Source: Chloroflexota bacterium
GTDB lineage: Bacteria; Chloroflexota; Dehalococcoidia; Dehalococcoidales; UBA2162
Assembly (NCBI GenBank): GCA_016190825.1
Contig: JACPPV010000009.1
Location: 65,328-129,327 of the forward strand
DNA length: 64,000 bases
Direction: 5' to 3'
Part shown: one piece after another, positions 27,364 to 52,969 of the stretch
How the letters are laid out: every line of letters begins with the position of its first letter
Position numbering within the stretch: the first letter of the stretch is position 1
Translations under genes and position numbers: made by a program
Notes under the pieces: model-generated
Database searches by the model: none
The model's input: only the letters and a program-made list of their open reading frames with translations
What the model was told of the DNA's origin: nothing

Positions 27364-27445
27364 TTAAGTCCCTTGCTCTTCTTCCTCCTCCCCCTCCACC
27401 CCCTCCTCTTCAAGTTGCTCCATCAGGCGGGCGTCAGGCCTTTCC
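27364..27445 (-). pseudogene. Remnant/duplicate of the ftsK 3' end
   Basis: The minus strand encodes ...PDARLMEQLEEEGVEGEEEEEQGT*, against the ftsK C-terminus PRAARLMEQLDEEGVEGGEDDTPRGS*. By hand alignment, nt 27379-27432 versus 28107-28160 are 45/54 identical, ungapped and in frame. Confidence 0.65.
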
Positions 27446-27463
27446 CTGCAGACACACACCGGG

Positions 27464-27724
27464 TCAGGGCCTTTTCAATACCTTATCATGTTCTCCAACA
27501 TTACGCATGATGGCCCTTTCGCCATCGATTTGAAGAGTCATCCGCAGCTTTTTGGAACAGCGCGCTTCCCAGATATCCCTGCCTCCCTGCATCTTCTTGA
27601 GATGAAGACCTGGGTGTCTTGGATTGCTTCCCAGTAGCGCAAGCGCTTTGTGCACACTGCTTTTTTCCGGTTTGGTGAGCTTTTCATACGCCTGTTCGAA
27701 TTGCTCGGTGAGATAGAATTCCAC
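27464..27724 (-). CDS. RelE/ParE-superfamily-like toxin
   Basis: 86 aa. LLGSNPRHPGLHLKKMQGGRDIWEARCSKKLRMTLQIDGERAIMRNVGEHDKV resembles the RelE/ParE core. The GTG start is 2 nt after the antitoxin stop. Confidence 0.55.
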   Translation of the reverse strand: MEFYLTEQFEQAYEKLTKPEKSSVHKALALLGSNPRHPGLHLKKMQGGRDIWEARCSKKLRMTLQIDGERAIMRNVGEHDKVLKRP

Positions 27725-27726
27725 CG

Positions 27727-28011
27727 TCAGGCTTTGCTCTCAAGATACTTGACAGCCTCGGCAGCGGACTTGAACCTTTTTACCCTCCCGGCCTTTATAT
27801 CTTCATCCGCCTTGCGCTCGCCTTTCTGCCACTCTTCAGTCCAGAAATAGGCCTGGCTGGCATCCACCAGCTTCTTTGGCGTTAATATGATATGCCCTTC
27901 CTCATCAAGTTCGACCTCAACAAAGTCGCCGGGTTGCATGTTCGTTTTTTCTCTGATTTCTTTGGGCAGAGTGATCTGTCCCCCATGCGTCAGCTTGGTC
28001 AGCATACCCAT
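27727..28011 (-). CDS. AbrB/MazE/SpoVT-family antitoxin
   Basis: GGQITLPKEIREKTNMQPGDFVEVELDEEGHIILTPKK is the swapped-hairpin AbrB-type DNA-binding domain. GGAGG lies 9 nt upstream of the ATG. Confidence 0.8.
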   Translation of the reverse strand: MGMLTKLTHGGQITLPKEIREKTNMQPGDFVEVELDEEGHIILTPKKLVDASQAYFWTEEWQKGERKADEDIKAGRVKRFKSAAEAVKYLESKA

Positions 28012-28028
28012 CCCGGTATTCCTCCGTC

Positions 28029-28054
28029 ATTGAACCATTGCATCATGATTCAAT
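28029..28054 (-). promoter_or_regulatory. Operator-like inverted repeat upstream of the AbrB/RelE-like pair
   Basis: ATTGAACCAT (28029-28038), 6 nt, ATGATTCAAT (28045-28054). 10-bp arms with 1 mismatch, located between the ftsK stop and the antitoxin SD. Confidence 0.4.
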
Positions 28055-28088
28055 ATTAAATCAAAATGGCAGGTGCCTGCAAACCGTG

Positions 28089-30347
28089 TCAGCTGCCACG
28101 TGGCGTATCATCCTCGCCCCCCTCCACACCCTCTTCATCGAGTTGCTCCATGAGGCGGGCGGCGCGGGGATAGCCAATGCGCAAACGGCGCTGGAGAAAT
28201 GAAGCGGAGACCTGTGCGTGTTCCTGCGCCAGCTTGCGTGCCTCCATGAGAAGCGGATCCTCCGGCGCGGAGCCTTTCCTGGTTGAGGACTGTGTTATCG
28301 GCAGGTCATCAATCTTGAGCGAGGGCACCTCTTCCTTGCGCTGGCTGTTCCAGAAATAGACCAGCCGCTCTATCTCCGGGTCGGAGACGTAGCAGCCCTG
28401 GAGTCGCTTGGGTTTATCTGCCTCAGTGGGCATATAGAGCATATCGCCGCGTCCCAGGAGCTTCTCCGCTCCTACCATATCCAGTATCGTCCGTGAGTCC
28501 ACCTGTGATGTAACGGCAAAGCTGATACGGGTAGGGAAGTTCGCTTTGATCAGCCCGGTAACAACGTCCACCGATGGCCGCTGAGTCGCCACCACCAGAT
28601 GAATCCCCACCGCGCGGGAAAGCTGGGCGAGCCGGCACAGTATCCGCTCGACCTCGTCTCCGCTCTGCATCATCAGGTCAGCAAGCTCGTCAATGACCAG
28701 CACCAGATAGGACATCTTTTCGGTCCCGCTGCGGTTCTTATTGTACGTCTCAATGTTGCGGGCGCTGACCGTGGCCATTTTCTGATAGCGCTGGTCCATC
28801 TCGTGACTGAGCCAGCGCAACGCTTCTAACGCCTTCTCAGCATCAACGATTACCGGCGCCGCCAGGTGCGGTATGCTGTTAAAGGAGGTAAGCTCCACCC
28901 GCTTGGGGTCGATCAGGACAAAGCGTACGTCGTTCGGCGTATTGCTCATAAGCAGGCAGCAGATTAGGGCGTTGAGGCAGACTGTCTTGCCGCTGCCGGT
29001 TGAGCCGGCGATGAGCAGATGGGGCATTTTCGCCAGGTCCGCCGCAGTCGCCTCACCGCCCGCCCCTTTGCCGAGCGCCAGGGCCATTTTCGACTTCGCT
29101 TGCACTTTCTGAAAACTGTTGGTCTCAACAACGCCGCGCAGGCTAACAGCCGTTGAAACTGTATTCGGCACTTCAATGCCAACTATCGACTTTCCAGGTA
29201 CTGGGGCTTCAATACGCAGGCTGGGGGCGGCCAGGGCGAGCGCCAAATCATTGGCAAGGGAGGTAATGCGGTCCACCTTGACTCTCGTCCGATTGGTCTC
29301 CTCAAGCCGGACCTTGACGTTTCCGTCCTTGTCTTTTTCCTTTGTCTCCTTGTATTTTCGGTCCCATCCGGGCTCAACGCCGAACTGCGTCACGGTGGGA
29401 CCGGCGTTTATCTGCACCACTTTGGCATCAACGCCGTAGCTGGCGAAAGCCTCTTCTATCAGCTTTGCCCTCTTGGCATTGTCCGCCTCAGTGAACTGGA
29501 CTTCCTGTGTCTTATCCAGGATGTCAATCGGCGGCAGTTTCCAGCCGTCCACCGTAACGAGCGAAGGGGATTCTCCATACTTCTTCCACACATCCTGCGC
29601 TACCTGCTTCAGATCCTGGCGTGGAGGTGCTTGGACAGGCGCCGGAGGTGCGCCCGGTGATCGGATAGCCGGCGTCGGAGAAGGTTGGGATGATGAGCGG
29701 ATGAAAGTGAACAACCCCCGAGGTCGGCGCTCCGGCTTGTAAAGCCCATCAGCAGGAGCCGGAGTTGCCTCCGGTCTGGCTGTTTCCGCAGATGGCAGAT
29801 TTACCCGAGGCGGATTCGCGGTCGGTAACGCAATCCGGCGCAATCGCCTGAATAGCTGCGAAGCCAAGAATACGACGAAGCGATAAAAGATACCCGGAGC
29901 AAGGAGAATGAAGCCGACCACTGCCAGGAGCAGAATACGCAGGATTCCGGTCAATATACCGGCAAAATTGAGCACGGGAGGGTTACCGGTAATTGCCTCG
30001 CCGATGCTGCCACCCAGCCCAAAAAAGGACAGGATGCCCCATATTGCCAGGGCAAAAGCAATTATGCCGATCCAGCGATTCCAGCGGAAAACCAGAGAAT
30101 TCAAACTTTGCTGTCGTATCAACCACACCAGGGCAGCAAGAAACAGGGCAACGAAAAGCAGCCCCCAGCCGAATAGCCCCCAGATAGCATCGGCTACGCT
30201 ACCTATTCCGGAAGCGATCACCGAACGCTGCCAATAGACAACACCAGCGACGGATACCAGGAAAACAAAAAGGACCAATCCGCGTCGCCTTGCCGAGCTG
30301 GCGGGGTCTCTGCCTCTGGCTTGATTACGAGAGTTTTTTCTTACCAT
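28089..30347 (-). CDS. ftsK: DNA translocase FtsK
   Basis: 752 aa. N-terminal TM helices, a Pro-rich linker, a motor domain with Walker A (GSTGSGKT), and a C-terminal gamma wHTH. Confidence 0.95.
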   Translation of the reverse strand: MVRKNSRNQARGRDPASSARRRGLVLFVFLVSVAGVVYWQRSVIASGIGSVADAIWGLFGWGLLFVALFLAALVWLIRQQSLNSLVFRWNRWIGIIAFALAIWGILSFFGLGGSIGEAITGNPPVLNFAGILTGILRILLLAVVGFILLAPGIFYRFVVFLASQLFRRLRRIALPTANPPRVNLPSAETARPEATPAPADGLYKPERRPRGLFTFIRSSSQPSPTPAIRSPGAPPAPVQAPPRQDLKQVAQDVWKKYGESPSLVTVDGWKLPPIDILDKTQEVQFTEADNAKRAKLIEEAFASYGVDAKVVQINAGPTVTQFGVEPGWDRKYKETKEKDKDGNVKVRLEETNRTRVKVDRITSLANDLALALAAPSLRIEAPVPGKSIVGIEVPNTVSTAVSLRGVVETNSFQKVQAKSKMALALGKGAGGEATAADLAKMPHLLIAGSTGSGKTVCLNALICCLLMSNTPNDVRFVLIDPKRVELTSFNSIPHLAAPVIVDAEKALEALRWLSHEMDQRYQKMATVSARNIETYNKNRSGTEKMSYLVLVIDELADLMMQSGDEVERILCRLAQLSRAVGIHLVVATQRPSVDVVTGLIKANFPTRISFAVTSQVDSRTILDMVGAEKLLGRGDMLYMPTEADKPKRLQGCYVSDPEIERLVYFWNSQRKEEVPSLKIDDLPITQSSTRKGSAPEDPLLMEARKLAQEHAQVSASFLQRRLRIGYPRAARLMEQLDEEGVEGGEDDTPRGS

Positions 30348-30376
30348 TAGTTTATCTCGCGAGACATTATCCTATT

Positions 30377-30443
30377 GTCATTCCCGCGAAACTTGTCCCG
30401 TACTTGTTACGGCAGCGGGAATCTACTCCCTGCGCGGGGTGAC
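30377..30443. repeat. Intergenic palindromic repeat, family C
   Basis: gtcattcccgcgaaacttgtcccgtacttgttacggcagcgggaatctactccctgcgcggggtgac, with TTCCCGC/GCGGGAA and CCGTA/TACGG stems. Related copies at 35250-35306, 45743-45775 and 19713-19740. Confidence 0.6.
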
Positions 30444-30458
30444 ACTTTTGGCTGTTCG

Positions 30459-32117
30459 CTACACCTTCACCATGAACGGCAGAATCATGGGGCGGCGCCT
30501 TGTCTGCTCATAGTAGAATTTGTTCAGGGTGTCCCTGACCTTGGTGCTGACAAAGCTCCACTCAGCCGGACGAGCGCCGCCGTGGTCGAGGACACGCGCC
30601 ACAAGGTCGCGGCTCGCCTCCAGCATATCACGAAACTCTTCCGGGTCAACAAAACCCCTGGAGATAATATCCGGACGCCCCACCACCTTGCCGGTCTGGC
30701 TGTCAACGGCGATTACTACCATGACAATGCCGTCCTTGGAAAGCATACGGCGGTCCCGCAGTACAATGCTGTCAACATCACCGACGCCAAGTCCATCCAC
30801 GTACACATTGCTGGCAGCCACTTTCCCGGTGACCTTGCCGCCGTCCTCTGTGATTTCGAGCACGTCGCCGTCCTCAAGGACGAAAATATTCCCGCTCGGT
30901 GTCCCCAGCGACTCAGCCAGCCGGGCGTGAAAAGTGAGGTGACGGAATTCTCCATGGACCGGGACAAAAAACTTGGGTTTCGTTATGTTAAGTATTAGCT
31001 TCAGTTCTTCCTGGCTGGCATGACCATGGACGTGCACATCAGCCACTTTGTTATACAATACCTGCGCCCCCTGCTTAAAGAGGCTGTCCACCGTGCGGTT
31101 CACCAGCGCTTCATTCCCCGGAATCGGTGTGGCAGAGAGGACGATGGTATCGCCGCGCTGGATGTGCACTTGCGGATGGTCACGGTTCGCCATGCGTACC
31201 AGCGCGGATGTAGGCTCACCCTGGCTTCCGGTGGTCACGAAAACAATCTTGTTATGCGGCAATCCCTTGAGCTCATCCATACGGGCAAGCACTCCGTCCG
31301 GCGCCTTAAGATAGCCCAGGTCCAGCGCCAGATGAACGGTATCACTCATGCTGCGGCCGATAACAAAAACGCGCCGCTGGTACTTGGCGGCGGCATCTAT
31401 TACCTGCTGAATACGGGATACCAGCGAGGAGAACGTCGTGACAATCACCCTTCCCGGAGACTCGGCGATGACCCTGTCCAGGGTATCGCCCACCACCTTT
31501 TCAGACGGAGTGTAGCCGGGCAGTTCAGCGTACGTGGAGTCGGAAAAGAGGAGCAGAATGCCCTTGCTGCCCAGTTGTGCCAGCCGTGACAGGTCGGTCG
31601 GCCTGCCTCCCACCGGCGTATGGTCAAGTTTGAAATCGCCGGTATGCACGATATCGCCCATCGGCGTATGGATGATTAGTCCGGCAGCGTCCGGAATACT
31701 ATGACAGACGGGGAAAAACTCGACCCGGAACTTCCCAAGCGTCACTGCCGACCCGGGTGATACCGTCTTGACAACGGCGCCATCATGTGCTTTCCGCTCC
31801 TTCAGCTTGACTGATATCAGCCCACGGGTCAGCTTAGTGGCGTAAACTGGCACATTAAGCTGGGGCAGAATGTAGGGCAATGCTCCGATGTGGTCTTCAT
31901 GGCCATGGGTGATGACAATCCCTCTTACCTTTTCTTTCCTTTCAACGAGGTAGCTCACATCCGGGATGACGAGGTCGATGCCTAGCATTTCTTCTTCAGG
32001 GAACATCAGTCCGGCGTCAATGACGATGATGTCGTCCTCGAACTCCAGGACCATCATGTTCTTGCCGATTTCGCTCAGCCCGCCGAGGGGAATCACCTTC
32101 AATCTCGGTTTTGGCAT
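30459..32117 (-). CDS. rnj: Ribonuclease J
   Basis: 552 aa. MBL motif ITHGHEDHIG plus beta-CASP and C-terminal domains. Confidence 0.9.
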   Translation of the reverse strand: MPKPRLKVIPLGGLSEIGKNMMVLEFEDDIIVIDAGLMFPEEEMLGIDLVIPDVSYLVERKEKVRGIVITHGHEDHIGALPYILPQLNVPVYATKLTRGLISVKLKERKAHDGAVVKTVSPGSAVTLGKFRVEFFPVCHSIPDAAGLIIHTPMGDIVHTGDFKLDHTPVGGRPTDLSRLAQLGSKGILLLFSDSTYAELPGYTPSEKVVGDTLDRVIAESPGRVIVTTFSSLVSRIQQVIDAAAKYQRRVFVIGRSMSDTVHLALDLGYLKAPDGVLARMDELKGLPHNKIVFVTTGSQGEPTSALVRMANRDHPQVHIQRGDTIVLSATPIPGNEALVNRTVDSLFKQGAQVLYNKVADVHVHGHASQEELKLILNITKPKFFVPVHGEFRHLTFHARLAESLGTPSGNIFVLEDGDVLEITEDGGKVTGKVAASNVYVDGLGVGDVDSIVLRDRRMLSKDGIVMVVIAVDSQTGKVVGRPDIISRGFVDPEEFRDMLEASRDLVARVLDHGGARPAEWSFVSTKVRDTLNKFYYEQTRRRPMILPFMVKV

Positions 32118-32119
32118 AT

Positions 32120-32728
32120 TTATACCTCGAACATCCTTAGTTGCTCCGGCTGTGGCGCCGGCTCAACGCGGGCCTCCGCTTTTGCAGCGGTCAGCAGGGG
32201 AGGAATTTTCTTCATATCAGCCTCAATCTCAGAACGCAAGCTCTGCTGGTGAAGCGCCGCCGCCGGGTGATACATAGCGAAATATGTGATGCCATCTCTC
32301 TTCTGCGCTGTCCCGTGGATCTTACTGATGCTCTTTCCGGGGAAAAACATCGCCATCGAGTAGCGTCCCAGGGTGACGATCATCTTCGGCGAGATAAGCT
32401 CAATCTGCTTGTCCAGCCAGGTATGACAATTGGCTATTTCCGCAGGCAATGGGTCGCGGTTTCCAGGCGGGCGGCATTTGATGACATTAGCGATGTACAC
32501 CTGGTCTCTTCTGAGGTCAATTGAAGTCAGGAGATGGTCCAGAAATTGCCCGGCCGGCCCGACGAAAGGTCTTCCTAACCGGTCTTCGTGATAGCCAGGC
32601 GCCTCACCGATGAACAGGACCTCGGCATTTTCCGCGCCTTCACCAGGCACGGCATGAGTTCGAAATCGAGCTATCTCACAACGGTGGCATTGTGCAATTT
32701 CGGAATAAAGCTTACTTAGTGCTGACAT
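32120..32728 (-). CDS. Uracil-DNA glycosylase, family 4
   Basis: C..C...R near the N-terminus (4Fe-4S), GEAPGYHEDRLGRPFVGPAG and HPAAALH motifs. Confidence 0.9.
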   Translation of the reverse strand: MSALSKLYSEIAQCHRCEIARFRTHAVPGEGAENAEVLFIGEAPGYHEDRLGRPFVGPAGQFLDHLLTSIDLRRDQVYIANVIKCRPPGNRDPLPAEIANCHTWLDKQIELISPKMIVTLGRYSMAMFFPGKSISKIHGTAQKRDGITYFAMYHPAAALHQQSLRSEIEADMKKIPPLLTAAKAEARVEPAPQPEQLRMFEV

Positions 32729-32855
32729 CTCGCTCAGCTAACAGCAGCGTTTCGCCTATGATAGCATGGGGGATATGTCAAGTCAATTTAAGGCAGGTAA
32801 ACTGGTTGACAGGTAAAGGGTCTCGTTGTAGACTTCAACAGGGAGGAAGCAGACC

Positions 32856-34100
32856 GTGTTCTCTTTAGGTGAAACTGACCCGCAGGTTAGCCGTGCCATC
32901 GAGCTGGAAAAAAAGCGACAGAGAGAGACCATCAATCTTATTGCTTCAGAAAACTACGCCAGCAGCGCCGTCCTTGAAGCCCAGGGGTCTTTTCTCACCA
33001 ACAAATATGCTGAGGGGTATCCCGGACGACGTTACTATGGTGGCTGTGAAAACATGGACACCATAGAGAGCCTGGCTATAGAACGGGCTAAAGAAATCTT
33101 CCACGCCGATCATGCTAATGTGCAGCCGCACGGTGGTTCTCAGGCCAATATGGCCGCCTACTTCACCCTGCTTGAATACGGTGATACCGTGCTCGGCATG
33201 AACCTGAGACACGGTGGGCATCTTACCCATGGTGACAGGGTAAGCTTCTCTGGGCGATCGTACAAATTTGTCCAGTACGGGGTCGAGAAGGAAACGGAGA
33301 GAATCGACTATTACGAGGTGGAGGCGCTGGCAAAGAAACATAAGCCGAAGCTGATTGTCGCTGGCGCCAGTGCCTACCCGCGCATCATTGATTTTGAACG
33401 TTTCCGTTACATAGCTGACCTTGTTGGCGCCAGACTGATGGTAGATATGGCGCATATCGCTGGCATGGTGGCCGTTGGACTTCATCCCACGCCGGTGCCG
33501 TATGCCGATATCGTTACCTCCACCAACCACAAGACGCTGAGAGGTCCGCGCGGCGGCTTCATCCTGTGCCGGGGAGAGCTTGCCTCAGCCATAGATGCAT
33601 CCGTTTTCCCGGTTACCCAGGGTGGACCGCTGATGCACGTAATTGCTGCCAAGGCCGTGGCGTTTCATGAGGCGTTGCAGCCGAGCTTTGTCGAATACCA
33701 GCGGGCAATACTGGACAATGCCCAGACCCTGGCGCAGGAGCTCCAGCGGGGCAGATTACGCCTTGTGTCCGGCGGCACGGATAATCACATCGTCCTGGTG
33801 GACCTTACCGAAACAGGTGTCACCGGCCGGGTAGCTGAAGAGGCTCTCGGACGCGTGGGAATTGTGGTCAACCGGAACGGCATCCCATTCGATCCGCTTC
33901 CGGCAATGATAACGAGCGGCATCAGGCTCGGCACGCCTGCCGTGACCAGCCGCGGCTTCGGAAAAAAAGAGATGAAGCAGGTCGCCGGCTTTATCCTTAG
34001 GGTAGTCTGCAACGCGGGCGACCCCGTGGTTGAAGGCCATGTACGGCAGGAGGTCCAGGAGTTGTGCTGCCGTTGCCCGGTGCCGGGAATTGATACCTGA
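32856..34100 (+). CDS. glyA: Serine hydroxymethyltransferase
   Basis: [18 protein letters not shown] and [14 protein letters not shown] (PLP-Lys) motifs. GTG start. Confidence 0.95.
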
Positions 34101-34247
34101 CCTGGCACACAGCTCGTTCTTACCTCACTCCTTCGTCCCGGGAAGAAGGGTTTTTCCTGCAATACGAGCCTAAACAAAAGGGTGCTATAATGTCTTGGGA
34201 TACAAAAAGTGTAATTCTCGCTTTTGCCGGAGGGACTGAAAAAGCAT

Positions 34248-35192
34248 ATGGATGAACTGAAAATTTTCGCCGGTAATGCGCATCCGGCGCTGGCTCAATC
34301 GGTTTGCGATTACCTGGGTATTCCCCTCGGAAAATGCGAGGTCTTCGAATTCAGTAACGAAAACATATTCGTCCGTATCCTGGAAAACATCCGCCAGCGT
34401 GATGTCTTTGTTATTCAGCCGCTGGCTTCCCCAGTCAACAATAATCTGGTTGAGCTTCTTATCATGCTGGATGCCCTCAAAAGGGCTTCTGCCGGACGTA
34501 TTACAGCGGTTGTACCATATTACGCCTACGGCCGTAGCGACCGAAAGGATCAGCCTCGCGTGCCGATAACTGCGAGATTGCTTGCCGATCTCTTCACAGT
34601 CGCCGGCGCCAACCGGCTGCTGACGGTCGACCTGCACTCATCTCAGATCCAGGGGTTCTTCAACATCCCAGTGGATGAGCTCACAGCACTCTACTTGCTG
34701 AGCGATTATTTCAAGAAGAAGGAGATCGAGGACCTTGTAGTAGTCGCCACTGATATCGGTATTTCTCGCCGCGCCTGGGATGTTGCGGCGCGCCTGAACG
34801 CACCGCTGGCTATCATAGAAAAGAAACGTCTTGACAACGCGGGCCACACTGCGGTACTTAATGTCATTGGAGAAGTCAGCGGGAAGAACGCGCTCATTTT
34901 CGATGATGAAATTGATACTGCCGGTTCTCTGGTAAATGCCGTTAGCGCCCTGACGGAGCTGGGAGTAAGAGAAACATATTCTGCCTGTACTCACCCGATA
35001 TTCTCCGGCCCGGCCATCCAACGGATCGCCGCCAGCCCGATAAAAGAGGTTGTGGTTACCGACACGGTGCCCGTGACCGGTCAGAAGAGACTGCCAAAAA
35101 TCACGGTACTTTCTATCGCCCCTCTGCTAGGCGAGGCGATACATCGCATCCATACCGGGCAATCGGTCGGGGCAATGTTCCAGCAGGAATGA
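34248..35192 (+). CDS. prs: Ribose-phosphate pyrophosphokinase
   Basis: MDELKIFAGNAHPALA is the canonical N-terminus. The track TTG start at 34224 adds 8 residues. Includes the PRPP-binding loop. Confidence 0.95.
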   Translation: MDELKIFAGNAHPALAQSVCDYLGIPLGKCEVFEFSNENIFVRILENIRQRDVFVIQPLASPVNNNLVELLIMLDALKRASAGRITAVVPYYAYGRSDRKDQPRVPITARLLADLFTVAGANRLLTVDLHSSQIQGFFNIPVDELTALYLLSDYFKKKEIEDLVVVATDIGISRRAWDVAARLNAPLAIIEKKRLDNAGHTAVLNVIGEVSGKNALIFDDEIDTAGSLVNAVSALTELGVRETYSACTHPIFSGPAIQRIAASPIKEVVVTDTVPVTGQKRLPKITVLSIAPLLGEAIHRIHTGQSVGAMFQQE

Positions 35193-35249
35193 GACGGAGA
35201 AACAGGTAACAATAACCAGGTAACAACGATTAAACCGCTTACCTGTTTT

Positions 35250-35306
35250 GTCACTCCCGCAAGGCTTGTCACGTACTGCGATACGTGCGATACGGGAGCG
35301 GGAATC
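35250..35306. repeat. Intergenic palindromic repeat, family C
   Basis: gtcactcccgcaaggcttgtcacgtactgcgatacgtgcgatacgggagcgggaatc, colinear with the 30377 copy. Confidence 0.55.
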
Positions 35307-35371
35307 CAGAGGAAGGGGGCGGTGGTAGTGACAAGAAACAGGGTTACAAAAGGGAGTAAGCACGAGAAAAC

Positions 35372-44759: not shown

Positions 44760-44773
44760 ATCGAACCAGACAA

Positions 44774-45697
44774 TTGGTAGTGGTGAGTATTATGGCAGCA
44801 GTCGGTAAAGCCTGGGGAGCAGACAGGGCTGTTCTTGCCGTATCAATCGCAGGCATGAAGCTGAAGCTTCTTGCCTGCCGGGGCAAGGAGGTGACAGCCT
44901 GGGAAACGGTGGACCTGCCAGCCGGTTTGATGAGTGGTGGACTTCCGTCCAATCCGCCGGGACTTGCCGGTGTGATAAAAACGACGTTGAAGCGAAAGGA
45001 ATTCAGTGGACGCGTGCGAGTGCTTGCCGCTCTGCCATCCCTTTACTCAGTCTGCCGGATCATGGAGCTGCCGGACTTGCCCCGCATCAAGCCGGAAACG
45101 GTGCTCCCTCAGCAGGCGAGACGGGACATCGGCTACTCCGCCGAGAACAGCCTGCTGTTCTGGCAGCGCCTGAACAATCAAAGCGACGGTAGACAGTTTA
45201 TGGTTGTTTCCGTACCGAAGGAACCGGTGGTCGCCATTGTTCAAACATTTCAGACGGCAGAGGTGCCTCTCAGCAAGCTTGAGACGGCGACCTTTTCGTT
45301 GTGCCGGGCGGTAAATGAAACCGATGCCGTTATCCTGGAGATAGACCAGTATGGATTTGAGTCCACCATTATGAGAGACCACATACCGGTAATCACTCGA
45401 AGCCAGTTTTCGGGGCAAAGGCCGTGGGATGCCGAATCTTTGCCGGCGCACGTGACCGATGCTCTCCAGCGCATCATCTCCTTCCATGATGAAAATAATC
45501 CCGGCAGCCCCCTGTCTGCCAGCGTTCCGTCCTACTTGCTCGGCTCGGGTGTCTCCGGGAACCCCGGCGTAATTGAAGCGGCGAACGCTGTCCTGGGGCG
45601 TCCGGTGGCGGACTTCGATCCGCCGCTGACCTATCCGGCCGATTTTCCGAAATCGGAGTTCGCGGTGAACATCGGTCTCGTGCTGAAGGAACTATGA
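44774..45697 (+). CDS. pilM: PilM-like actin-fold pilus assembly protein
   Basis: 307 aa. Patterns ALPSLYSVCRIMELPDLP and FMVVSVPKEPVVAIVQTFQTAEVPLSKLETATFSLCRAV resemble PilM. Start uncertain (TTG at 44774, ATG at 44792). Confidence 0.6.
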   Translation: MVVVSIMAAVGKAWGADRAVLAVSIAGMKLKLLACRGKEVTAWETVDLPAGLMSGGLPSNPPGLAGVIKTTLKRKEFSGRVRVLAALPSLYSVCRIMELPDLPRIKPETVLPQQARRDIGYSAENSLLFWQRLNNQSDGRQFMVVSVPKEPVVAIVQTFQTAEVPLSKLETATFSLCRAVNETDAVILEIDQYGFESTIMRDHIPVITRSQFSGQRPWDAESLPAHVTDALQRIISFHDENNPGSPLSASVPSYLLGSGVSGNPGVIEAANAVLGRPVADFDPPLTYPADFPKSEFAVNIGLVLKEL

Positions 45698-45742
45698 CGA
45701 ACCAGAGCATGGTCAGGGCGACGTTTCTTCTGATTCTTCATT

Positions 45743-45775
45743 GTCATTCCTGCTTACGCAGCAATCTATCCCTGC
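45743..45775. repeat. Intergenic palindromic repeat, family C variant
   Basis: gtcattcctgcttacgcagcaatctatccctgc. Its ends match gtcattcccgc...gcgggaatctactccctgc of the 30377 copy. Confidence 0.5.
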
Positions 45776-45871
45776 ACTACCCGGATTCGTGCTGTGCGTG
45801 TAGTGTGCCGATACAGGGAAGGACATACCGCCGCTCAGCGCGTTTTTTGCCTAGCCCCAAACCGCCTCCAA

Positions 45872-45880
45872 TGATATAAT
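45872..45880 (+). promoter_or_regulatory. Extended -10 element TGaTATAAT 6 nt upstream of the pcrA GTG
   Basis: TG at 45872-45873 and TATAAT at 45875-45880. GTG at 45887 with no SD in between, implying a leaderless or near-leaderless transcript. Confidence 0.45.
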
Positions 45881-45886
45881 TGGCAG

Positions 45887-48070
45887 GTGGATATACTGGA
45901 TAAGATACTTGCCGGGCTCAACCCCGCCCAGAAGGAAGCCGTTGAAGCGCCCGACGGGCCTTTACTTATTCTGGCCGGACCGGGTAGTGGCAAGACCCGG
46001 GTCATCACCCATCGCATCGCCTACCTGGTCCGTATCCGCGGTGTTAATCCCCAGCGTATCATGGCGGTCACCTTCACCAACAAAGCCGCGAGGGAAATGA
46101 CCGAGCGACTTGAAAGACTGATGAGCTATGCAGTCAAGGAGCTGACCATCGGCACGTTTCATGCCATCTGCTCCCGGATACTGCGACGCGACGGCAGTGC
46201 CATCGGCATCGACAATCGATTTGTCATCTACGACGGTGACGACCAGACCCGACTGCTCAAGCGCTGCCTTCAGGAGCTAAACCTCGACCCCAAGCAGTAT
46301 GCCCCGGCGGCGCTAGCTTCGGCGATTTCCTCGGCAAAGGCCCACCTGCTTGATCCCCGCCAGTACCTTGAGCGCGGGCGCAGCTATTTCGATGAGATTG
46401 CGGCGCGGGTGTACGAACTGTACCAGCAGCGGCTCCGCGAGAGCAACGCGCTCGACTTCGATGACTTGCTGATGATGGCGGTGCTCCTTTTCCGGCGGAA
46501 CCCGGATGTCCTGGAGCGGTATCAATCGCGCTACCTGCACCTGCTCGTTGACGAGTTCCAGGATACCAACCTGGTGCAGTATGAGCTGATCAGGCAGATT
46601 GGCGGCAAGCATCGCAATATCTGCGTTGTGGGCGACCCCGATCAGTCGATCTATTCCTGGCGGTTCGCCGATTTGCGCAATATCCTGAGCTTTGAGAAGG
46701 ACTACCCTGATGCCCGGGTCATCTTGCTCGAACAGAGCTACCGCTCCACCCGGACCATCCTGGAGACTGCCTCGCGGATCATCATGGCTAACCAGCAACG
46801 GAAGCCGAAGAACCTGTGGACGGAAAACGAGGTAGGCGAGCCGGTCAGCACGGTGGAAACCTACAACGAGCAAGAAGAGGCGCAGTTTGTCGCCCGGGAG
46901 GTGGAGCGACTGGTCAGTCGCGGAGAAGCCAGCCTGGGCGATTTTGCGGTGATGTATCGGACAAACGCGCAATCGCGCGTCATCGAGGAGACCTTTCTGC
47001 GCCACGGGATTTCCCATCGCCTGGTTGCCGGCACGCGGTTTTACGAGCGGCGTGAGGTCAAGGATATCATCGCCTACCTCCGGCTTATTCAGAACCCGAA
47101 CGATGGCGTCAGCCTGATGAGGATCATAAATATCCCCCAGCGCGGTATCGGCGATCAGAGCCAGGCGCGATTCTCCGCCTGGGCGAAGTCGCTCGACCTC
47201 TCGCTTTATGAGGTGCTGAAGCAGTTGGCCGGAAAGGAAATGAAAGCGCCCTTCACCCCGCACGTCGCCGGGGTACTGTGCGCTTTCGCCGGCATGATGG
47301 AGGGACTCGCCGCGCGGAGCAATGAGTTGAACCTGGTCGACCTGTTCGACCTCGTGGTCGAGCGCACCAACTACCGGGCATACCTGATGAATATGCCTGA
47401 TGGCGAAGAGCGCTGGGATAACGTCATGGAGTTGCGCAAGGTCGCCGAACAGCACCGCGACCTCTATCCGCCGGACGGTCTGACGGCGTTTCTCGAGGGC
47501 GTAACGCTGGTCTCGGATGTCGACAGCCTGGAAGAGGGCGTGCCAGCGGTCACCCTGATCACCCTCCACCAGGCGAAGGGGCTGGAGTTTCCGGTGGTCT
47601 TCATCGTTGGCATGGAGGAGGGACTTCTCCCTCACTTCCGCTCCTTTGACGACCCGGCACAGATGGAGGAAGAGCGGCGACTCTGCTATGTGGGCGTGAC
47701 GCGGGCGAAGAAGCGACTCTACCTAGTGCGGGCGTTCCGCCGCAACCTGATGGGACGGAGTATCGTCACCGAACCGTCCCGCTTCTTGGCCGACATCCCG
47801 CGTGATAAACTAGCGACCGGAAGCTCGTGGCAGGAGGAGCGGGGCGGCGTTGACGCCTCGCAATACGCCTGGGAAAAGCCGTCACTGTCTGCCGCCGTTG
47901 CCCGGCCGGACCTGAAAGCGGGCGACCGCGTCCGCCACGCCCAGTTCGGCGAAGGGGTGGTGGTCGGTATTAAGGCGACCAGCAACGATACCGAGGCGAC
48001 AGTAGCCTTCGATGGCCATGGGGTAAAAAAGCTCTTAATGAGTTTCGCCCGACTGGAGAAGGTGGTATAA
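45887..48070 (+). CDS. pcrA: ATP-dependent DNA helicase PcrA/UvrD
   Basis: 727 aa. LNPAQKEAV, AGPGSGKT, DEFQDTN and the remaining SF1 motifs, plus a C-terminal Tudor-like tail (GDRVRHAQFGEGVV). Confidence 0.95.
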   Translation: MDILDKILAGLNPAQKEAVEAPDGPLLILAGPGSGKTRVITHRIAYLVRIRGVNPQRIMAVTFTNKAAREMTERLERLMSYAVKELTIGTFHAICSRILRRDGSAIGIDNRFVIYDGDDQTRLLKRCLQELNLDPKQYAPAALASAISSAKAHLLDPRQYLERGRSYFDEIAARVYELYQQRLRESNALDFDDLLMMAVLLFRRNPDVLERYQSRYLHLLVDEFQDTNLVQYELIRQIGGKHRNICVVGDPDQSIYSWRFADLRNILSFEKDYPDARVILLEQSYRSTRTILETASRIIMANQQRKPKNLWTENEVGEPVSTVETYNEQEEAQFVAREVERLVSRGEASLGDFAVMYRTNAQSRVIEETFLRHGISHRLVAGTRFYERREVKDIIAYLRLIQNPNDGVSLMRIINIPQRGIGDQSQARFSAWAKSLDLSLYEVLKQLAGKEMKAPFTPHVAGVLCAFAGMMEGLAARSNELNLVDLFDLVVERTNYRAYLMNMPDGEERWDNVMELRKVAEQHRDLYPPDGLTAFLEGVTLVSDVDSLEEGVPAVTLITLHQAKGLEFPVVFIVGMEEGLLPHFRSFDDPAQMEEERRLCYVGVTRAKKRLYLVRAFRRNLMGRSIVTEPSRFLADIPRDKLATGSSWQEERGGVDASQYAWEKPSLSAAVARPDLKAGDRVRHAQFGEGVVVGIKATSNDTEATVAFDGHGVKKLLMSFARLEKVV

Positions 48071-48110
48071 TCTGGAAAATCTCAAGTGACAAAATAGCAA
48101 GCAGCAAGTA

Positions 48111-48139
48111 TTGACAGGCTACACGGAAACGTGTATAAT
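48111..48139 (+). promoter_or_regulatory. Perfect-consensus sigma70 promoter TTGACA-17-TATAAT at the left edge of the pcrA-mutL islet
   Basis: TTGACA at 48111-48116, 17-nt spacer, TATAAT at 48134-48139. The spacer and flanks are duplicated upstream of mutL (49561-49591). Confidence 0.6.
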
Positions 48140-48249
48140 GAAGGAAAAGCTGATCATACTGGGAAGTGTAAAGCAGGATAGTTTATTAGAAATGCAAAAT
48201 GACCCCTGGCCGATGTTGGTTTAACCGTATTATTTAAGGAGTGCTGAAT

Positions 48250-48444
48250 ATGCAGATAAGTAAGATAAGTAATTGTAGTTGTGGGAGCACCGACTTTCTC
48301 GTAATAACGGAAAAACTATATGAGGGATCTGTTGAGGATGGGGTGTTGAAGTGCGAGCCGGATAGCGAAGGTATCATGGAGATCCAATGTAGACAATGCC
48401 AAAAACAATATGATGTTAGCTCGTTTGAAGACATAGATTATTGA
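48250..48444 (+). CDS. Small Zn-ribbon-like protein (64 aa)
   Basis: AAGGAG (48236-48241) lies 8 nt upstream of the ATG at 48250; the track GTG at 48241 abuts the SD. Cys pattern: CSCG ... C ... CRQC. Confidence 0.5.
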   Translation: MQISKISNCSCGSTDFLVITEKLYEGSVEDGVLKCEPDSEGIMEIQCRQCQKQYDVSSFEDIDY

Positions 48445-49061
48445 CACTGGAATTAGAAATGAGCGTGAAAACAGACAATGATGTCCTCACAGAGATAACA
48501 AAGTTCTTTGAGCAGATTTTTGTATTAAAAAGAAAAGGTAATGAATATGCTTATGCAGATTACAAAGTTGAATGGCTGGAGCAACTGGGTTTGTCCGCTT
48601 CTGATGGGGATGAATCCAAAACATCACGGACCACAAAGAAATTACAGGAACACCTGAAAAACAAGTTTGGTGAGAGATTGAGTGTAGAAGCGCCTGTTGC
48701 AAAGGGAATGACTCTAAGATTTGCATCTGATAAGCTGAATGCTATAGAACGTATTGATATTGACTCGAATAAGTTGCAGGCTTTTGACATTTTAGATATT
48801 GAAACGGGGACAGCGTTTGAAGTCAGTCTGTCAGATGCCTTCGCTGAATTCTTCAAAGATGTTCTGAAGTCTTTATTGGATTCGCGAGTCAAGACACTCT
48901 ATATTTGTATGAGAAACCACAGTTACAAAGGTTCCAAAAAGAGCGGCTATTTAAAGCTAAGAGACTCGCCGATGGTTCAACAGTATATAAGTCTCGCAAA
49001 GCTTTATAAACTGGACATATATTTGGTCGATTTATTTCCTAAATGTAATGAGACATTGTAA
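48441..49061 (+). CDS. Hypothetical protein, possibly BamHI/BglII-like restriction-endonuclease fold (weak)
   Basis: TTGA start/stop overlap with the upstream gene. FDILDIETGTAFEVSLSDAFAEFFKDVLKSLL...LYICM...LDIYLVDL loosely parallels [27 protein letters not shown]...VEIVP...IPVLILGI of the BglII-like enzyme at 52359. Confidence 0.4.
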   Translation: MTLELEMSVKTDNDVLTEITKFFEQIFVLKRKGNEYAYADYKVEWLEQLGLSASDGDESKTSRTTKKLQEHLKNKFGERLSVEAPVAKGMTLRFASDKLNAIERIDIDSNKLQAFDILDIETGTAFEVSLSDAFAEFFKDVLKSLLDSRVKTLYICMRNHSYKGSKKSGYLKLRDSPMVQQYISLAKLYKLDIYLVDLFPKCNETL

Positions 49062-49084
49062 ATTTCTTGGTAGGTCGATAATTG

Positions 49085-49515
49085 GATGGGTTCCCTAAAT
49101 TCGACAAGTTGTTAAGAGCGGCCTAAAATCCGTAGGCTATCAAGCAGAGACACCGAAAACGATAACAGGAAAAAGCAAAGCGACCGGTTATCCGGATATA
49201 GAATTCATCGACGAATTTGGGCGTTCAAATTACCTTGAGTGCAAGACCTACAATATAGAAAATATTTCTACTACGATGAGGTCATTCTATTTATCGCCTT
49301 CTGAAGAGTTCAAGATTACCAAAGACGCGCACCACATCGTAGTCTCTTTTGAGGCATTCGTTGCTGGTAATAAGAGAGGGAAATACATCTTCAAATGTAG
49401 AAGCTGGAAAATAATTTCCCTGGAGAAACTCCTGGTTGACGTTAAATACGAGTTTAATTCGGATAATAAGAGGCTATATTCACCTGATTTGGTATTGGCT
49501 GAAGGGAAATTGTGA
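49085..49515 (+). pseudogene. PD-(D/E)xK nuclease-like ORF lacking an in-frame canonical start (frameshifted or non-canonical initiation)
   Basis: The frame is open from 49099 to 49515 and encodes ...KATGYPDIEFIDEFGRSNYLECKTYN... (PD at 49192-49197, ExK at 49237-49245). The first in-frame ATG/GTG/TTG is only at 49276, downstream of the motif. An ATG at 49085 lies in a different frame and stops at 49112-49114. Confidence 0.5.
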
Positions 49516-49560
49516 CAGCGCAGTTTCCCTACAACAAGAGGTGATCAGTCAAATAGCCCG

Positions 49561-49589
49561 TTGATAAACCATACGGAAACGTGTTTATT
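49561..49589 (+). promoter_or_regulatory. Degenerate promoter copy TTGATA-17-TTTATT immediately upstream of mutL
   Basis: 24/31 identical to 48111-48141, with a 12-nt perfect core ACGGAAACGTGT. The -10 ends 8 nt before the mutL ATG and there is no SD. Confidence 0.45.
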
Positions 49590-49597
49590 GAGATAAC

Positions 49598-51304
49598 ATG
49601 CCCATCAAACTCTTAGACCCCCAGGTAGTTGCCCGGATAGCCGCCGGGGAGGTGGTGGAGAGGCCGGCCTCGGTGGTGAAGGAGCTGGTGGAGAACGCCC
49701 TGGATGCCGGCGCCACTCAGGTCACGGTGGAGGCGGCAGGCGGTGGGATAAGCCTTATCCGGGTGACGGATAACGGGGTCGGGATTCCCGCCAACGAAGT
49801 CGAGCTTGCCTTTCAACGCCACGCCACCAGCAAGATTGCCAGCCTGGTTGATTTAGAATCGATTTCCACCCTGGGCTTTCGCGGTGAGGCGCTGGCCAGC
49901 CTTATCGCCGTGGGCGAGGTGGAGCTTGCCACCTGCGCCGCTGGCGAGACCGCCGGCAGCTATCTCCACCTGGTAGATGGCGAAATAGTCGACCGCACCC
50001 CGCAGGGACGGAGCCGGGGGACGACCATCACGGTGAGAGGCCTGTTCCACAACGTTCCCGCGCGACTTAAGTTCTTGAAGTCGACTGCCACCGAAGGCGG
50101 GCACATCGCTGCCGTGGTCACGCACTATGCCCTCGCCTATCCGGAGGTGAGGTTTACCCTTTCCGTTGATCGGCGGACGACATTGTCTACGCCGGGAAAC
50201 GGACGGCTTATCGACTGCGTGGTGGAGGTCTACGGCGCGGACACGGCACGGGGCATGATCGAGCTCAGGCGGGATAATAGCTGGGACGGAGCCGGGCAGG
50301 ATACCGTCGCCGTCACCGGACTGGTTGGGTCGCCGGCCGTCAGCCGCTCGAACCGCAACTACCTCAGCTGTTTTGTTAACCGGCGCTGGGTGAACAGTCG
50401 ACTTCTTACCTGGGCGCTGGAGGAAGCCTATCATGGGCTGTTGATGACCGGCAAACACCCGGCGGCGGTCCTGAACATTTCAATCCCGCCCGGGGAGGTC
50501 GATGTCAATATCCATCCGGCCAAGATGGAGGTAAAGTTCCGCGATGAACGCCGCGTTTTCGCCGCGGTGCAGAGGTTGGTGCGGCGCGCCCTCATTGAAC
50601 CGGTTTCTCTGCCCCGCATCGAGGACCCCGCCGCCACCTATGCCGCACCGACTTCATCCCTCTCTACCCGGCCATTGCCTGCAGAAAAGGTGGAGCGACC
50701 TTCCGGCCTGCCACTTGCGCGTCCCGTTCCCGCTTTCGCACTGCCGGCATTGCGACCCCTCGGGCAGGTGGCTGGCTGCTACATCGTGGCCGAGGGACCG
50801 GACGGACTGTACCTCATCGATCAGCATGCCGCCCATGAGCGGGTGCTTTTCGAGCAGATCGTTGGGCAGCGGGCGCAACGCCAGTTGGAAGTGCAGGGAC
50901 TGCTTGAGCCGCAGACATTCGAGGTCAGCCCGGCACAGAATGCCGCGCTTCTTTCCCGGCTCGACGAACTGGCCGGATTTGGATTTACCCTGGAGCCTTT
51001 CGGTGAGCGCGCCTACCTGGTGAGGGCGGTCCCTGCGTTTCTCAACCGGAAGGACTGGATGGCTGTGCTACGGGAAATAGCCGATTCCCCCGGTGGCGGA
51101 GAAGACTGGTCGGAGAGGACGACCGCGTCCATTGCCTGCCACAGCGCCGTTCGGGCGGGGCAGACATTGGGTGACGACGAGATGCGGGCGCTGCTGAGAC
51201 AACTAGAGCAGACGGCGCTGCCCAGCACCTGCCCGCACGGTCGACCCACCATGCTCCATCTCAACTCCGCTTATCTGGAGCGGGAGTTCGGCCGGAGGGG
51301 GTAA
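49598..51304 (+). CDS. mutL: DNA mismatch repair protein MutL (endonuclease-type)
   Basis: N-terminal GHKL ATPase (VVKELVENALDAG, TDNGVGI) and the C-terminal endonuclease motif DQHAAHERVLFE. Confidence 0.95.
   Translation: MPIKLLDPQVVARIAAGEVVERPASVVKELVENALDAGATQVTVEAAGGGISLIRVTDNGVGIPANEVELAFQRHATSKIASLVDLESISTLGFRGEALASLIAVGEVELATCAAGETAGSYLHLVDGEIVDRTPQGRSRGTTITVRGLFHNVPARLKFLKSTATEGGHIAAVVTHYALAYPEVRFTLSVDRRTTLSTPGNGRLIDCVVEVYGADTARGMIELRRDNSWDGAGQDTVAVTGLVGSPAVSRSNRNYLSCFVNRRWVNSRLLTWALEEAYHGLLMTGKHPAAVLNISIPPGEVDVNIHPAKMEVKFRDERRVFAAVQRLVRRALIEPVSLPRIEDPAATYAAPTSSLSTRPLPAEKVERPSGLPLARPVPAFALPALRPLGQVAGCYIVAEGPDGLYLIDQHAAHERVLFEQIVGQRAQRQLEVQGLLEPQTFEVSPAQNAALLSRLDELAGFGFTLEPFGERAYLVRAVPAFLNRKDWMAVLREIADSPGGGEDWSERTTASIACHSAVRAGQTLGDDEMRALLRQLEQTALPSTCPHGRPTMLHLNSAYLEREFGRRG
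51265..51304 (+). repeat. Left copy of a perfect 40-bp direct repeat (last 13 codons of mutL, including the stop)
   Basis: ctccgcttatctggagcgggagttcggccggagggggtaa, identical to 52930-52969. Confidence 0.95.
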
Positions 51305-51372
51305 AAACTCGTGTGTTTGAAGTTGACTATCTGTTTGTGGCAAGAGTCTAAGTGTATAATTGAGAGAACGGC

Positions 51373-52359
51373 TTGAGTATGACGTCAGATTCGCAGCGAG
51401 AAAAAGTTTTGACATCTCCGGATTTTATGCCCAGAATCGACGCTGAGTATATACAAGCTTCATCTATCATCGCGCATGTTGGCGATACGCTACCTTTCCT
51501 ACAGACCATCCCGACAGGTTTGTTTCGCCTCATTATGACGTCTCCCCCTTATAATCTCGGAAAGGCGTATGAAAAACCCAAAGCACTGAGCGAATATCTT
51601 GAGGAACAGGGAAACGTAATCCAAGAGCTCATCCGATGTCTTGCCGACGATGGTAGCCTTTGTTGGCAGGTAGGAAACTTCGTTCAGGATGGCGAAGTCT
51701 TTCCTCTCGACACCTTGTTCTATCCCATATTCAAACGAAATGGTTTGAAGTTGCGCAATCGGATTATCTGGCAGTTTGGACATGGACTCCACGCATCTCG
51801 CCGTTTCTCAGGAAGATATGAGACTTTGCTCTGGTTCACGAAATCAAACAATTATGTCTTCAATCTCGATAAAGTGCGGGTTCCCGCAAAGTATCCCGGA
51901 AAAACATTTTACAAAGGACCTAACAAGGGTAAGCCTTCTGGAAACCCTTTGGGAAAGAATCCCTCTGATGTTTGGACGTTTCTAGCTGAGGAATGGGAGA
52001 ATCAAGTCTGGGAGATTCCCAATGTTAAATCTAATCACCCTGAGAAGACCATACATCCCTGCCAGTTTCCGGTGGAACTTGTTGAGCGCTGCGTTCTGGC
52101 TCTGACGAATGAGAACGACTGGGTATTCGATCCATATATGGGAGTTGGTTCCGCGTTGATCGGTGGGCTTTTGCACGACCGGAAGGTCGCTGGCTGCGAC
52201 AGGGAACACCTGTATGTCGAAATCGCCAGGAATCGGATTAGAGATCTTTTCCTGGGTCGTCTCAAAGTGAGAAAAATGGGGACACCGATATACGTTCCAA
52301 CCGGGCGAGAGAGAGTATCCCAGATTCCCATCGAGTGGCCAAAAGGAGAAGCACAATAG
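51373..52359 (+). CDS. Beta-class N4-cytosine/N6-adenine DNA methyltransferase (M.BglII-like)
   Basis: Motif IV SPPY (51541-51552) precedes motif I VFDPYMGVGSA near the C-terminus, giving the beta-class order. The start is either TTG at 51373 or ATG at 51379. Confidence 0.88.
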   Translation: MSMTSDSQREKVLTSPDFMPRIDAEYIQASSIIAHVGDTLPFLQTIPTGLFRLIMTSPPYNLGKAYEKPKALSEYLEEQGNVIQELIRCLADDGSLCWQVGNFVQDGEVFPLDTLFYPIFKRNGLKLRNRIIWQFGHGLHASRRFSGRYETLLWFTKSNNYVFNLDKVRVPAKYPGKTFYKGPNKGKPSGNPLGKNPSDVWTFLAEEWENQVWEIPNVKSNHPEKTIHPCQFPVELVERCVLALTNENDWVFDPYMGVGSALIGGLLHDRKVAGCDREHLYVEIARNRIRDLFLGRLKVRKMGTPIYVPTGRERVSQIPIEWPKGEAQ

Positions 52360-52928
52360 TGAGAATAGTCGCCTCGTATTCGTTCAGGGGAGGAGAAAGA
52401 GCGGTCAAAAGGAAGCACAAGGATTCCCTTGCCGAGATTACGGCTGTAATCGAAGCGGTAAACTCCGATGAGCATAAGACGAAAGCCAGTAGAGAAAAAA
52501 CTATGCCTGGTAGAATACTGTATAGTCCAAGATCATTAAATGCCGCGTTCAAATCAGAGTTTGAAGCCGCTGGATGGCAGAAAAAGAAGGTGAATTGCGA
52601 ATATCCCACTCAGTTTTATGTTAAGGGATACACTCCCACGCATAACGCCAAAGGCGCCTTCCGTGAGATGGATTTCCTCAAGGGAAAGTTAGGGGTAGAG
52701 GTACAATTTGGTAAGTATGCATTCATGGTTTATAACGTTTGCGCCAAGATGACAATATTCCAGAAAATGGGCTTCATCGACACTGGCGTCGAAATAGTCC
52801 CGGTCAAGAGTTTCGCCGACCAGATGTCCACAGGAGTCTCGTATTTTGAGCAGTTTGTGTGGGATTTGGAAGCTCGTGGCGTTTCAAACATAGACATTCC
52901 TGTTCTTATCTTGGGTATCGACCGATGA
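52359..52928 (+). CDS. Type II restriction endonuclease, BglII family-like
   Basis: [20 protein letters not shown] has D, E(+9), Q(+11) spacing. That equals the D84/E93/Q95 spacing I recall for BglII (DIDFGKRDTLVEVQFSNYPF). GTG at 52359 overlaps the methylase TAG, with AAGGAG 10 nt upstream. The track start at 52335 is an alternative. Confidence 0.72.
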
Positions 52929-52929
52929 G

Positions 52930-52969
52930 CTCCGCTTATCTGGAGCGGGAGTTCGGCCGGAGGGGGTAA
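52930..52969 (+). repeat. Right copy of the perfect 40-bp direct repeat
   Basis: Identical to 51265-51304 and followed by gttccaagaag... leading into rnhA. Confidence 0.95.

Follow-up and report, generated by a model that had tools for sequence, protein, structure and literature searches.

Accessory gene cassettes flanked by repeated core-gene ends and a repeated mutL promoter in a Dehalococcoidia genome suggest acquisition without a recombinase

Introduction

Integrative elements that insert at the 3' ends of genes are known together with integrase-less derivatives flanked by attachment (att) sites, as in the ssrA islands of Dehalococcoides and the cis-mobilizable elements (CIMEs) of streptococci. 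Insertion with long target duplication has been described for restriction-modification (R-M) gene pairs in units of <20 kb that are flanked by direct repeats of >30 bp and carry no mobility gene (Nobusato et al. 2000; Furuta, Abe & Kobayashi 2010, PMC2853133), and examples from Haemophilus influenzae show that the duplication may overlap the 3' end of a neighbouring gene (PMC2853133). Homology-facilitated illegitimate recombination, as it is summarised in two later papers (PMC5361080, PMC3240628), combines one homologous anchor with one illegitimate joint (de Vries & Wackernagel 2002; Prudhomme et al. 2002; Meier & Wackernagel 2003). In the effector-immunity loci of Rhs, contact-dependent inhibition (CDI) and type VI secretion systems (T6SS), C-terminal displacement brings in a new 3' end together with cargo, and the old 3' end is shifted downstream as an orphan (Jackson et al. 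2009; Kirchberger et al. 2017, PMC5361080). Here we analyzed a stretch of 64,000 nucleotides, called the window throughout, from the Chloroflexota bacterium assembly GCA_016190825.1 (contig JACPPV010000009.1, positions 65,328 to 129,327; class Dehalococcoidia, order Dehalococcoidales). Three accessory modules in the window, beside the core genes ftsK and mutL, are each flanked by a repeat of the end or the promoter of the adjacent gene. We found that this pattern belongs to the known footprints of recombinase-free acquisition and is not a new mobile element or defence system.

Results

Three accessory modules are flanked by repeats of the adjacent core gene

An earlier note on this DNA had described three modules, each bounded by a duplication of the host gene's end or promoter, and all three repeats are present. 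The end of ftsK recurs at 27380-27433 and 28108-28161 (46/54 positions identical, where the note had counted 45), the mutL promoter at 48111-48141 and 49561-49591 (24/31, with a core of 17/19 at 48123-48141 and 49573-49591), and the end of mutL at 51265-51304 and 52930-52969 (40/40). The inserts between them measure 674, 1419 and 1625 nt and the repeats 54, 31 and 40 nt, within the limits of <20 kb and >30 bp used by Furuta et al. (2010). That definition also asks for homologues of both a restriction and a modification gene, which are found in insert 3; insert 1 holds a toxin-antitoxin (TA) pair and insert 2 an endonuclease fragment only. All three inserts are lower in GC content (Table 1) than the window (0.54) and the ftsK, pcrA and mutL genes (0.58-0.64).

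Family searches agreed with the identities proposed earlier for ftsK, pcrA, mutL, rnhA, uvrB and the Shedu gene SduA. They also bore out that the modules lack a recombinase: no integrase, transposase or recombinase was detected in the three modules or among about 60 scanned open reading frames (ORFs) of the window. The ends of the three inserts carry no terminal inverted repeats of the kind that define a DNA transposon or a miniature inverted-repeat transposable element (MITE). No hairpin is common to all the repeats, since folding was better than in shuffled sequences for the promoter palindrome and one ftsK copy alone, and no promoter-like sites were found in the remnant copies.

Chance similarity or an assembly artefact has to be considered, since the source contig was assembled from a metagenome, the 31-mer reaches only a background score in a self-comparison of the whole window, and the perfect 40-mer might, in principle, reflect a separate molecule joined in through the assembly graph. 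We nevertheless find this explanation very hard to credit. Dinucleotide-shuffled flanks reached the observed score in 0/2000 (ftsK), 3/2000 (promoter) and 0/2000 (mutL end) trials, and the 40-mer and the 54-mer are the top two direct repeats of the window outside paralogous genes. The 31-mer is considered real despite its background score because both of its copies align to a mutL promoter that is conserved across the clade. Assembly cannot create diverged repeats, the final k-mer sizes in common use should resolve a repeat of 40 bp, and the same pattern occurs in independent assemblies of relatives (loci L093, L172 and L004, below). These results support the three cases as independent insertions beside core genes, without a recombinase.

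Table 1 Positions of the repeats, inserts and genes in the window.
Feature	Position	Strand	Content or basis
ftsK-internal repeat copy, functional 3' end	28108-28161	-	encodes ARLMEQLDEEGVEGGED; ftsK then finishes DTPRGS and stop at 28089
Insert 1	27434-28107	-	674 nt, GC 0.50
Displaced ftsK tail remnant	27365-27433	-	in frame, own stop: ARLMEQLEEEGVEGEEEEEQGT and stop
pcrA-proximal mutL promoter copy	48111-48141	+	TTGACA, perfect palindrome TACACGGAAACGTGTA (48120-48135), TATAAT; now upstream of insert 2
Insert 2	48142-49560	+	1419 nt, GC 0.39
67-aa Zn-ribbon-like ORF	48241-48444	+	in insert 2
206-aa ORF, rare family	48441-49061	+	in insert 2
N-truncated type II restriction endonuclease pseudogene	49102-49515	+	PADLOC REase_II positions 93-227 of 230, E 2e-24
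mutL-proximal promoter copy, degenerate	49561-49591	+	TTGATA ... CATACGGAAACGTGTT ... TTTATT
mutL last 40 nt including TAA stop, repeat copy 1	51265-51304	+	
Insert 3	51305-52929	+	1625 nt, GC 0.47; 68-nt leader, methyltransferase, endonuclease
Second mutL-end copy, perfect	52930-52969	+	32 nt upstream of rnhA ATG (53002)
Shedu SduA	22102-23166		family search
uvrB	23179-25260		family search
HicB / HicA	25501-25949		family search
GNAT	25946-26440	-	family search
HEPN-AbiU2	26464-27336	-	family search
86-aa ORF	27464-27724	-	no family match
AbrB/MazE antitoxin	27727-28011	-	PF04014
ftsK	28089-30347	-	family search
pcrA	45887-48070		family search
mutL	49598-51304		family search
N4/N6 methyltransferase	51373-52359		PF01555
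BglII/BstYI-family endonuclease	52335-52928		PF09195
rnhA	53002-53484		family search

Gene content of the inserts

Insert 1 contains the new final 19 nt of ftsK, followed by a spacer of 77 nt in which a palindrome lies at 28037-28054, the antitoxin gene and its 86-aa partner. Beyond it lies the displaced ftsK remnant, which reads as a plausible FtsK acidic tail and resembles the tails of relatives; all FtsK relatives share a conserved motif (IGYPRAAR followed by L or I) and then run into variable acidic tails. The longest unbroken identity within the ftsK repeat is about 11-12 nt. None of the seven relatives examined at this site (L127 and L171-L176) has a tail remnant, and the 3' flank of ftsK differs among all of them. 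In two relatives, the DNA directly downstream of ftsK holds a fragment of a truncated N6_N4 methyltransferase (L175:9713-10156 and L176:9137-9580). The 86-aa partner shows a helix-helix-four-strand order in a low-confidence predicted model.

Insert 2 separates the two copies of the mutL promoter. The copy with the perfect palindrome sits 40 nt past the pcrA stop, and the palindrome of the mutL-proximal copy begins at -28 from the mutL ATG, which is its native position in relatives. The earlier description of this insert as a nuclease trio stands for one gene, the N-truncated type II endonuclease; the other two ORFs remain unclassified. The truncated endonuclease suggests that insert 2 is decayed R-M DNA, and no methyltransferase was found in it. 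The 206-aa ORF (48441-49061) has no match in Pfam, NCBIfam, PADLOC or the PDB. Its family counts 25 cluster representatives among 1.84 billion proteins and has invariant residues D116, E127 and K139, so that it may be a candidate PD-(D/E)xK nuclease. Structure models of the 206-aa ORF and the 86-aa partner had pLDDT (predicted local distance difference test) values of 43 and 47 and were unusable for fold search, and PDB sequence and profile searches with the unclassified ORFs gave no match.

Insert 3 stops 1 nt past the stop codon of the endonuclease. Homologues of its R-M pair (endonucleases 65-81% identical, from a family of almost 7000 proteins) follow gmk or recR or lie elsewhere, without flanking repeats, and the endonuclease family is also found on small plasmids. 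Four homologous R-M pairs in other genomes (L161, L162/163 and L166) have no flanking repeats. AGATCT occurs at 2 sites in the window against 5.8 expected, one of them within the R-M insert, which is only suggestive of restriction-site avoidance. GATC and GGCC are likewise under-represented in the window (observed/expected 0.47 and 0.48).

The pcrA-mutL junction is an insertion hotspot in relatives

The two genes flanking insert 2 are adjacent in 18 Dehalococcoidia loci, with a gap of 11-107 nt (52-53 nt in the two closest relatives). The gap contains a conserved predicted promoter, TTGACA-N3-TACACG-N4-CGTGTA-TAnnAT, in which the palindrome TACACG-N4-CGTGTA separates the -35 box from the -10 box. 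In 23 loci it is placed at -28 to -37 relative to the mutL start (loci with the palindrome just upstream of mutL: window, L002, L005, L010, L082-L107, L168-L170). Elsewhere in 2.2 Mb of fetched DNA the palindrome was found only 2 times, once as the duplicate in L093. About 20 relatives with a short pcrA-mutL gap have the promoter site uninterrupted and in single copy. The single palindrome of the relatives indicates that in the window one ancestral element was duplicated and now stands on both sides of the 1.4-kb insert, and that the resemblance is not due to chance.

A second case of promoter duplication was found in L093, a metagenome contig whose MutL is 54% identical. There a promoter repeat of 34 nt (33/34) brackets a different methyltransferase and a convergent 238-aa ORF; the length and end points of the repeat differ from those in the window. 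Five further relatives have enlarged pcrA-mutL gaps: 387 nt in L004, 812 nt with a DUF2284 gene in L082, 971 nt in L091, 1087 nt with a methyltransferase in L088, and 2676 nt with a methyltransferase and a 239-aa ORF in L095. No repeats were detectable around these five. In 4/7 of the junction inserts (those of the window, L004, L082, L088, L091, L093 and L095) there is a type II methyltransferase or endonuclease gene. Because L093 and the other relatives carry differing inserts at this place, the pcrA-mutL junction is a clade-wide insertion hotspot, often holding R-M genes. In another relative, a 67-aa zinc-ribbon gene directly upstream of mutL is tandemly duplicated with a unit of about 261 nt (L008:9640-10026).

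That the mutL promoter holds different cassettes in two lineages would fit Campbell-type integration, in which a circularised cassette bearing a short copy of the gene end or promoter enters by a single crossover of the host's homologous recombination, which regenerates flanking repeats, and excision between these releases the circle again. The repeats, 31-78 bp long, come close to the shortest length that RecA-dependent recombination needs, and a similar life cycle has been proposed by Kobayashi's group for repeat-flanked R-M units. We consider this route improbable, however: the longest identity left in the ftsK repeat falls short of what a crossover inside it would require, homologous R-M pairs occupy unrelated sites without repeats, and no circular form was observed.

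Repeated gene ends occur beside other genes and cargo

To find further cases, the last 110 nt of 1502 predicted genes (from the window and 173 fetched loci) were searched for a direct copy 60-6000 nt downstream, with the inverted orientation as control. At a score of >=38 there were 12 cases against 1 in the control, and at >=50 there were 8 against 0. Those kept after curation include the window mutL and ftsK ends. In L172 the end of rlmN (78 nt, 66/78) reappears past a 2.1-kb amino-acid permease gene; in L004 the end of an Fe-S/FAD oxidoreductase gene (44 nt, 39/44) reappears past a SnoaL-like gene; and in L091 the end of mutL (29 nt, 26/29) reappears past a 124-nt MITE-like insert. L094 is a weaker case. 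Hits in L011, L049 and L147 were dismissed as low complexity or paralogues, and in a survey of 5'-side repeats L003 (Fe-S motif similarity) and L042 (low complexity) were dismissed as well.

The MITE-like insert of L091 (11638-11761, right after mutL) has perfect 13-bp terminal inverted repeats, TTGTCATTGCGAG and CTCGCAATGACAA, and is bracketed by the 29-nt mutL-end repeat and not by a short target duplication. L104 contains a 100-nt hairpin-rich intergenic repeat at 11713-11812 and 14892-14987 (84% identical), the first copy 15 nt past the mutL stop. This is perhaps an intergenic repeat element and not the remnant of a gene end.

The earlier note had called for such duplications to be sought elsewhere, and the same architecture was indeed found in L093, L172, L004 and L091. 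It had also tied the modules to defence functions beside DNA-metabolism genes. This holds for the pcrA-mutL hotspot, which is often occupied by R-M genes, but not for the rlmN and oxidoreductase sites with their permease and SnoaL cargo, nor for the R-M homologues after gmk and recR. With permease and SnoaL genes among the cargo, the pattern reaches beyond defence modules next to repair genes.

Elements that integrate into gene 3' ends bring a substitute end and leave direct repeats, and one might suppose that the cassettes are integrase-less, att-flanked elements with a replacement gene end in the attachment site, integrated by a site-specific recombinase encoded elsewhere. The substitute end would evolve under coding constraint, in line with the synonymous bias described below. 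We regard this as very doubtful, since at least five targets (the ftsK end, mutL end, mutL promoter, rlmN end and oxidoreductase end) would need separate specificities. Besides the lack of a recombinase among the scanned window ORFs, the inserts are minimal (0.1-2.1 kb), and at one and the same promoter site the window and L093 have repeats of different length and with different end points.

The diverged copies look like gene ends from two lineages

The differences between functional ends and remnants were classified for the four diverged coding pairs: ftsK of the window (4.5 synonymous, 3.5 nonsynonymous), rlmN of L172 (8.5 and 3.5), the oxidoreductase of L004 (4 and 1) and mutL of L091 (2 and 1). 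Pooled, there are 19 synonymous and 9 nonsynonymous differences, with proportions of 0.43 at synonymous (pS) and 0.06 at nonsynonymous sites (pN). This bias has P = 4e-7 against neutrality, and P = 6e-5 to 5e-4 against an in-place duplication in which one copy decays neutrally. In the ftsK repeat, 7/9 differences over 54 nt fall on third codon positions. The remnants retain the reading frame and an in-frame stop in every case, and the repeat ends either at the stop codon (window mutL, L004 and L091) or where variable C-terminal tails diverge (ftsK and rlmN). Because the differences are mostly synonymous and frame and stop are kept, the diverged copies resemble the ends that one gene would have in two lineages.

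The divergence of the coding repeats thus looks like the distance between a donor and a recipient lineage and not like age. The earlier note had taken the graded divergence as a sign of insertions of different ages and had proposed a test of whether repeat divergence follows the compositional amelioration of the cassettes; repeat identities of 85%, 77% and 100% do not track insert GC contents of 0.50, 0.39 and 0.47. The data agree with the first of its two candidate mechanisms, recombination by way of homology to conserved gene termini, whereas long-staggered-cut insertion runs counter to the 19 synonymous against 9 nonsynonymous coding differences.

The second of these would be an in-place insertion with long target duplication, in which a staggered double-strand break or offset nicks are filled in after the cassette has been joined and the copies then diverge with age; the R-M system itself might possibly provoke the break or the nicks. 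This matches the published R-M class with repeats of 30-500 bp and no mobility genes (PMC2853133), and it is favoured by the perfect 40/40 repeat around the intact R-M pair, the 33/34 repeat around the methyltransferase-containing insert of L093, and the most diverged repeat (24/31) around the decayed R-M remnant. Overall we think it rather unlikely. A copy that was dead as soon as it arose should not show synonymous-biased coding divergence, the boundary on the stop codon in 3/5 coding cases is left as a coincidence, repeat identity is not tracked by insert GC, and the cargo extends beyond R-M genes.

A proposed route by one-sided recombination

We favour, with middling confidence, a route in which each cassette came in through recombination that had its anchor in the highly conserved core gene next to it, while the opposite side was closed by a non-homologous join. 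The incoming DNA would come from another Dehalococcoidia lineage and carry its own ftsK or mutL end, or promoter, followed by cargo. One crossover, by homology, would occur within the core gene, and the far end would be joined illegitimately a few tens of bases before the end of the resident gene. The core gene would then finish with the imported end, and the resident end would become a short dead remnant downstream of the cargo. The outcome would be a seeming flanking duplication that needs no recombinase. Gene order downstream of mutL and ftsK varies among relatives; as it is not conserved, only one flank offers homology, and we infer a one-sided homologous and illegitimate recombination route. 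The conserved ftsK, pcrA and mutL genes would, we infer, attract such events by offering homology between diverged genomes.

Several points weigh against this account. No empty site, donor or mosaic breakpoint is visible, the nearest mutL being 71-72% and the nearest ftsK 73% identical; at both gene ends, relatives have a single gene end but differing downstream synteny, and none is closer than about 72% protein identity. A search for a close strain in GTDB genomes, JGI metagenomes and a set of 5.8 billion proteins returned nothing nearer than 66-73% besides the source contig. That contig measures 215,785 bp, and its MutL and FtsK match those of the window at 100% identity. A sliding-window neighbour test for mosaicism along FtsK gave no signal and had no power. 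Homologous recombination should be rare at the divergence implied by a pS of 0.43. The window ftsK alone gives a weak synonymous bias (P ~0.09) and part of its repeat consists of low-complexity GAR codons, so that the statistical weight of the bias comes from the loci of relatives. The repeat-free R-M homologues are compatible with one-sided recombination and lend it no support. Finally, the repeats without divergence, 40/40 at the window mutL end with its intact R-M pair and 33/34 around the methyltransferase-containing insert of L093, suit an in-situ duplication equally well. The 40-bp repeat around the R-M pair would look the same whether it came from a donor within the population or from a genuine long target duplication made in situ.

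Other genes of the window

The gene pair of insert 1 belongs to a small islet between the convergent uvrB and ftsK genes (25257-28088) that comprises HicB/HicA, a GNAT acetyltransferase, HEPN-AbiU2 and the MazE-type pair, and Shedu SduA lies 12 nt upstream of uvrB. Self-comparison of the window showed no flanking repeats around the Shedu, HicAB and AbiU2 genes; within the islet only the MazE pair has one. Two tandem paralogous gene pairs were also seen, at 5488-6599 (spacing 907 nt) and at 55928-56991 (spacing 542 nt; hemerythrin-like).

Discussion

The three insertions show how genes for defence and other accessory functions enter a compact genome that has hardly any intergenic space, without the enzymes of a mobile element and with the interrupted essential gene or promoter kept in working order. 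The mechanism of insertion with long target duplication has been unexplained since 2000, and the synonymous bias bears on it: if this bias holds up, the repeats are the gene ends of donor and recipient and not two copies of one target. To the known footprints our analysis adds a hotspot at the conserved mutL promoter, a previously unstudied promoter palindrome, and evidence that "duplicated" ends stem from different lineages. A bolder proposal, which we advance only as a long shot, is that streamlined Dehalococcoidia exchange small "addressed" cassettes, in which a short piece of a conserved core-gene end or promoter directs re-insertion, without a recombinase, into the same junction of diverged genomes. 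R-M genes would then have a preferred landing site in the mutL promoter palindrome, and many published long target duplications would be juxtaposed donor and recipient ends.

Among the described systems, insertion with long target duplication resembles the window in its repeat-flanked R-M pair, the lack of a mobility gene and an insert GC below that of the host. The window differs in that a TA pair is found as well, with metabolic and transport genes in relatives, and in that the coding repeats resemble the ends of different lineages instead of copies of one target. Homology-facilitated illegitimate recombination shares with our cases that no element-encoded enzyme is needed and that one flank is without conserved synteny. 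A difference is that, according to the accounts cited above, its experimental demonstration came from transformable bacteria and used anchors of at least 100 bp. In the Rhs, CDI and T6SS loci the variable 3' end is itself a toxin domain and the displaced pieces are long; here the loss to the housekeeping genes ftsK, mutL and rlmN is just 10-25 codons, and gene and cargo are unrelated. As with integrative elements at gene 3' ends, direct repeats of the gene end flank the accessory DNA and the gene stays intact, but here no integrase was found, the targets are many, the cassettes are tiny and the repeat end points vary.

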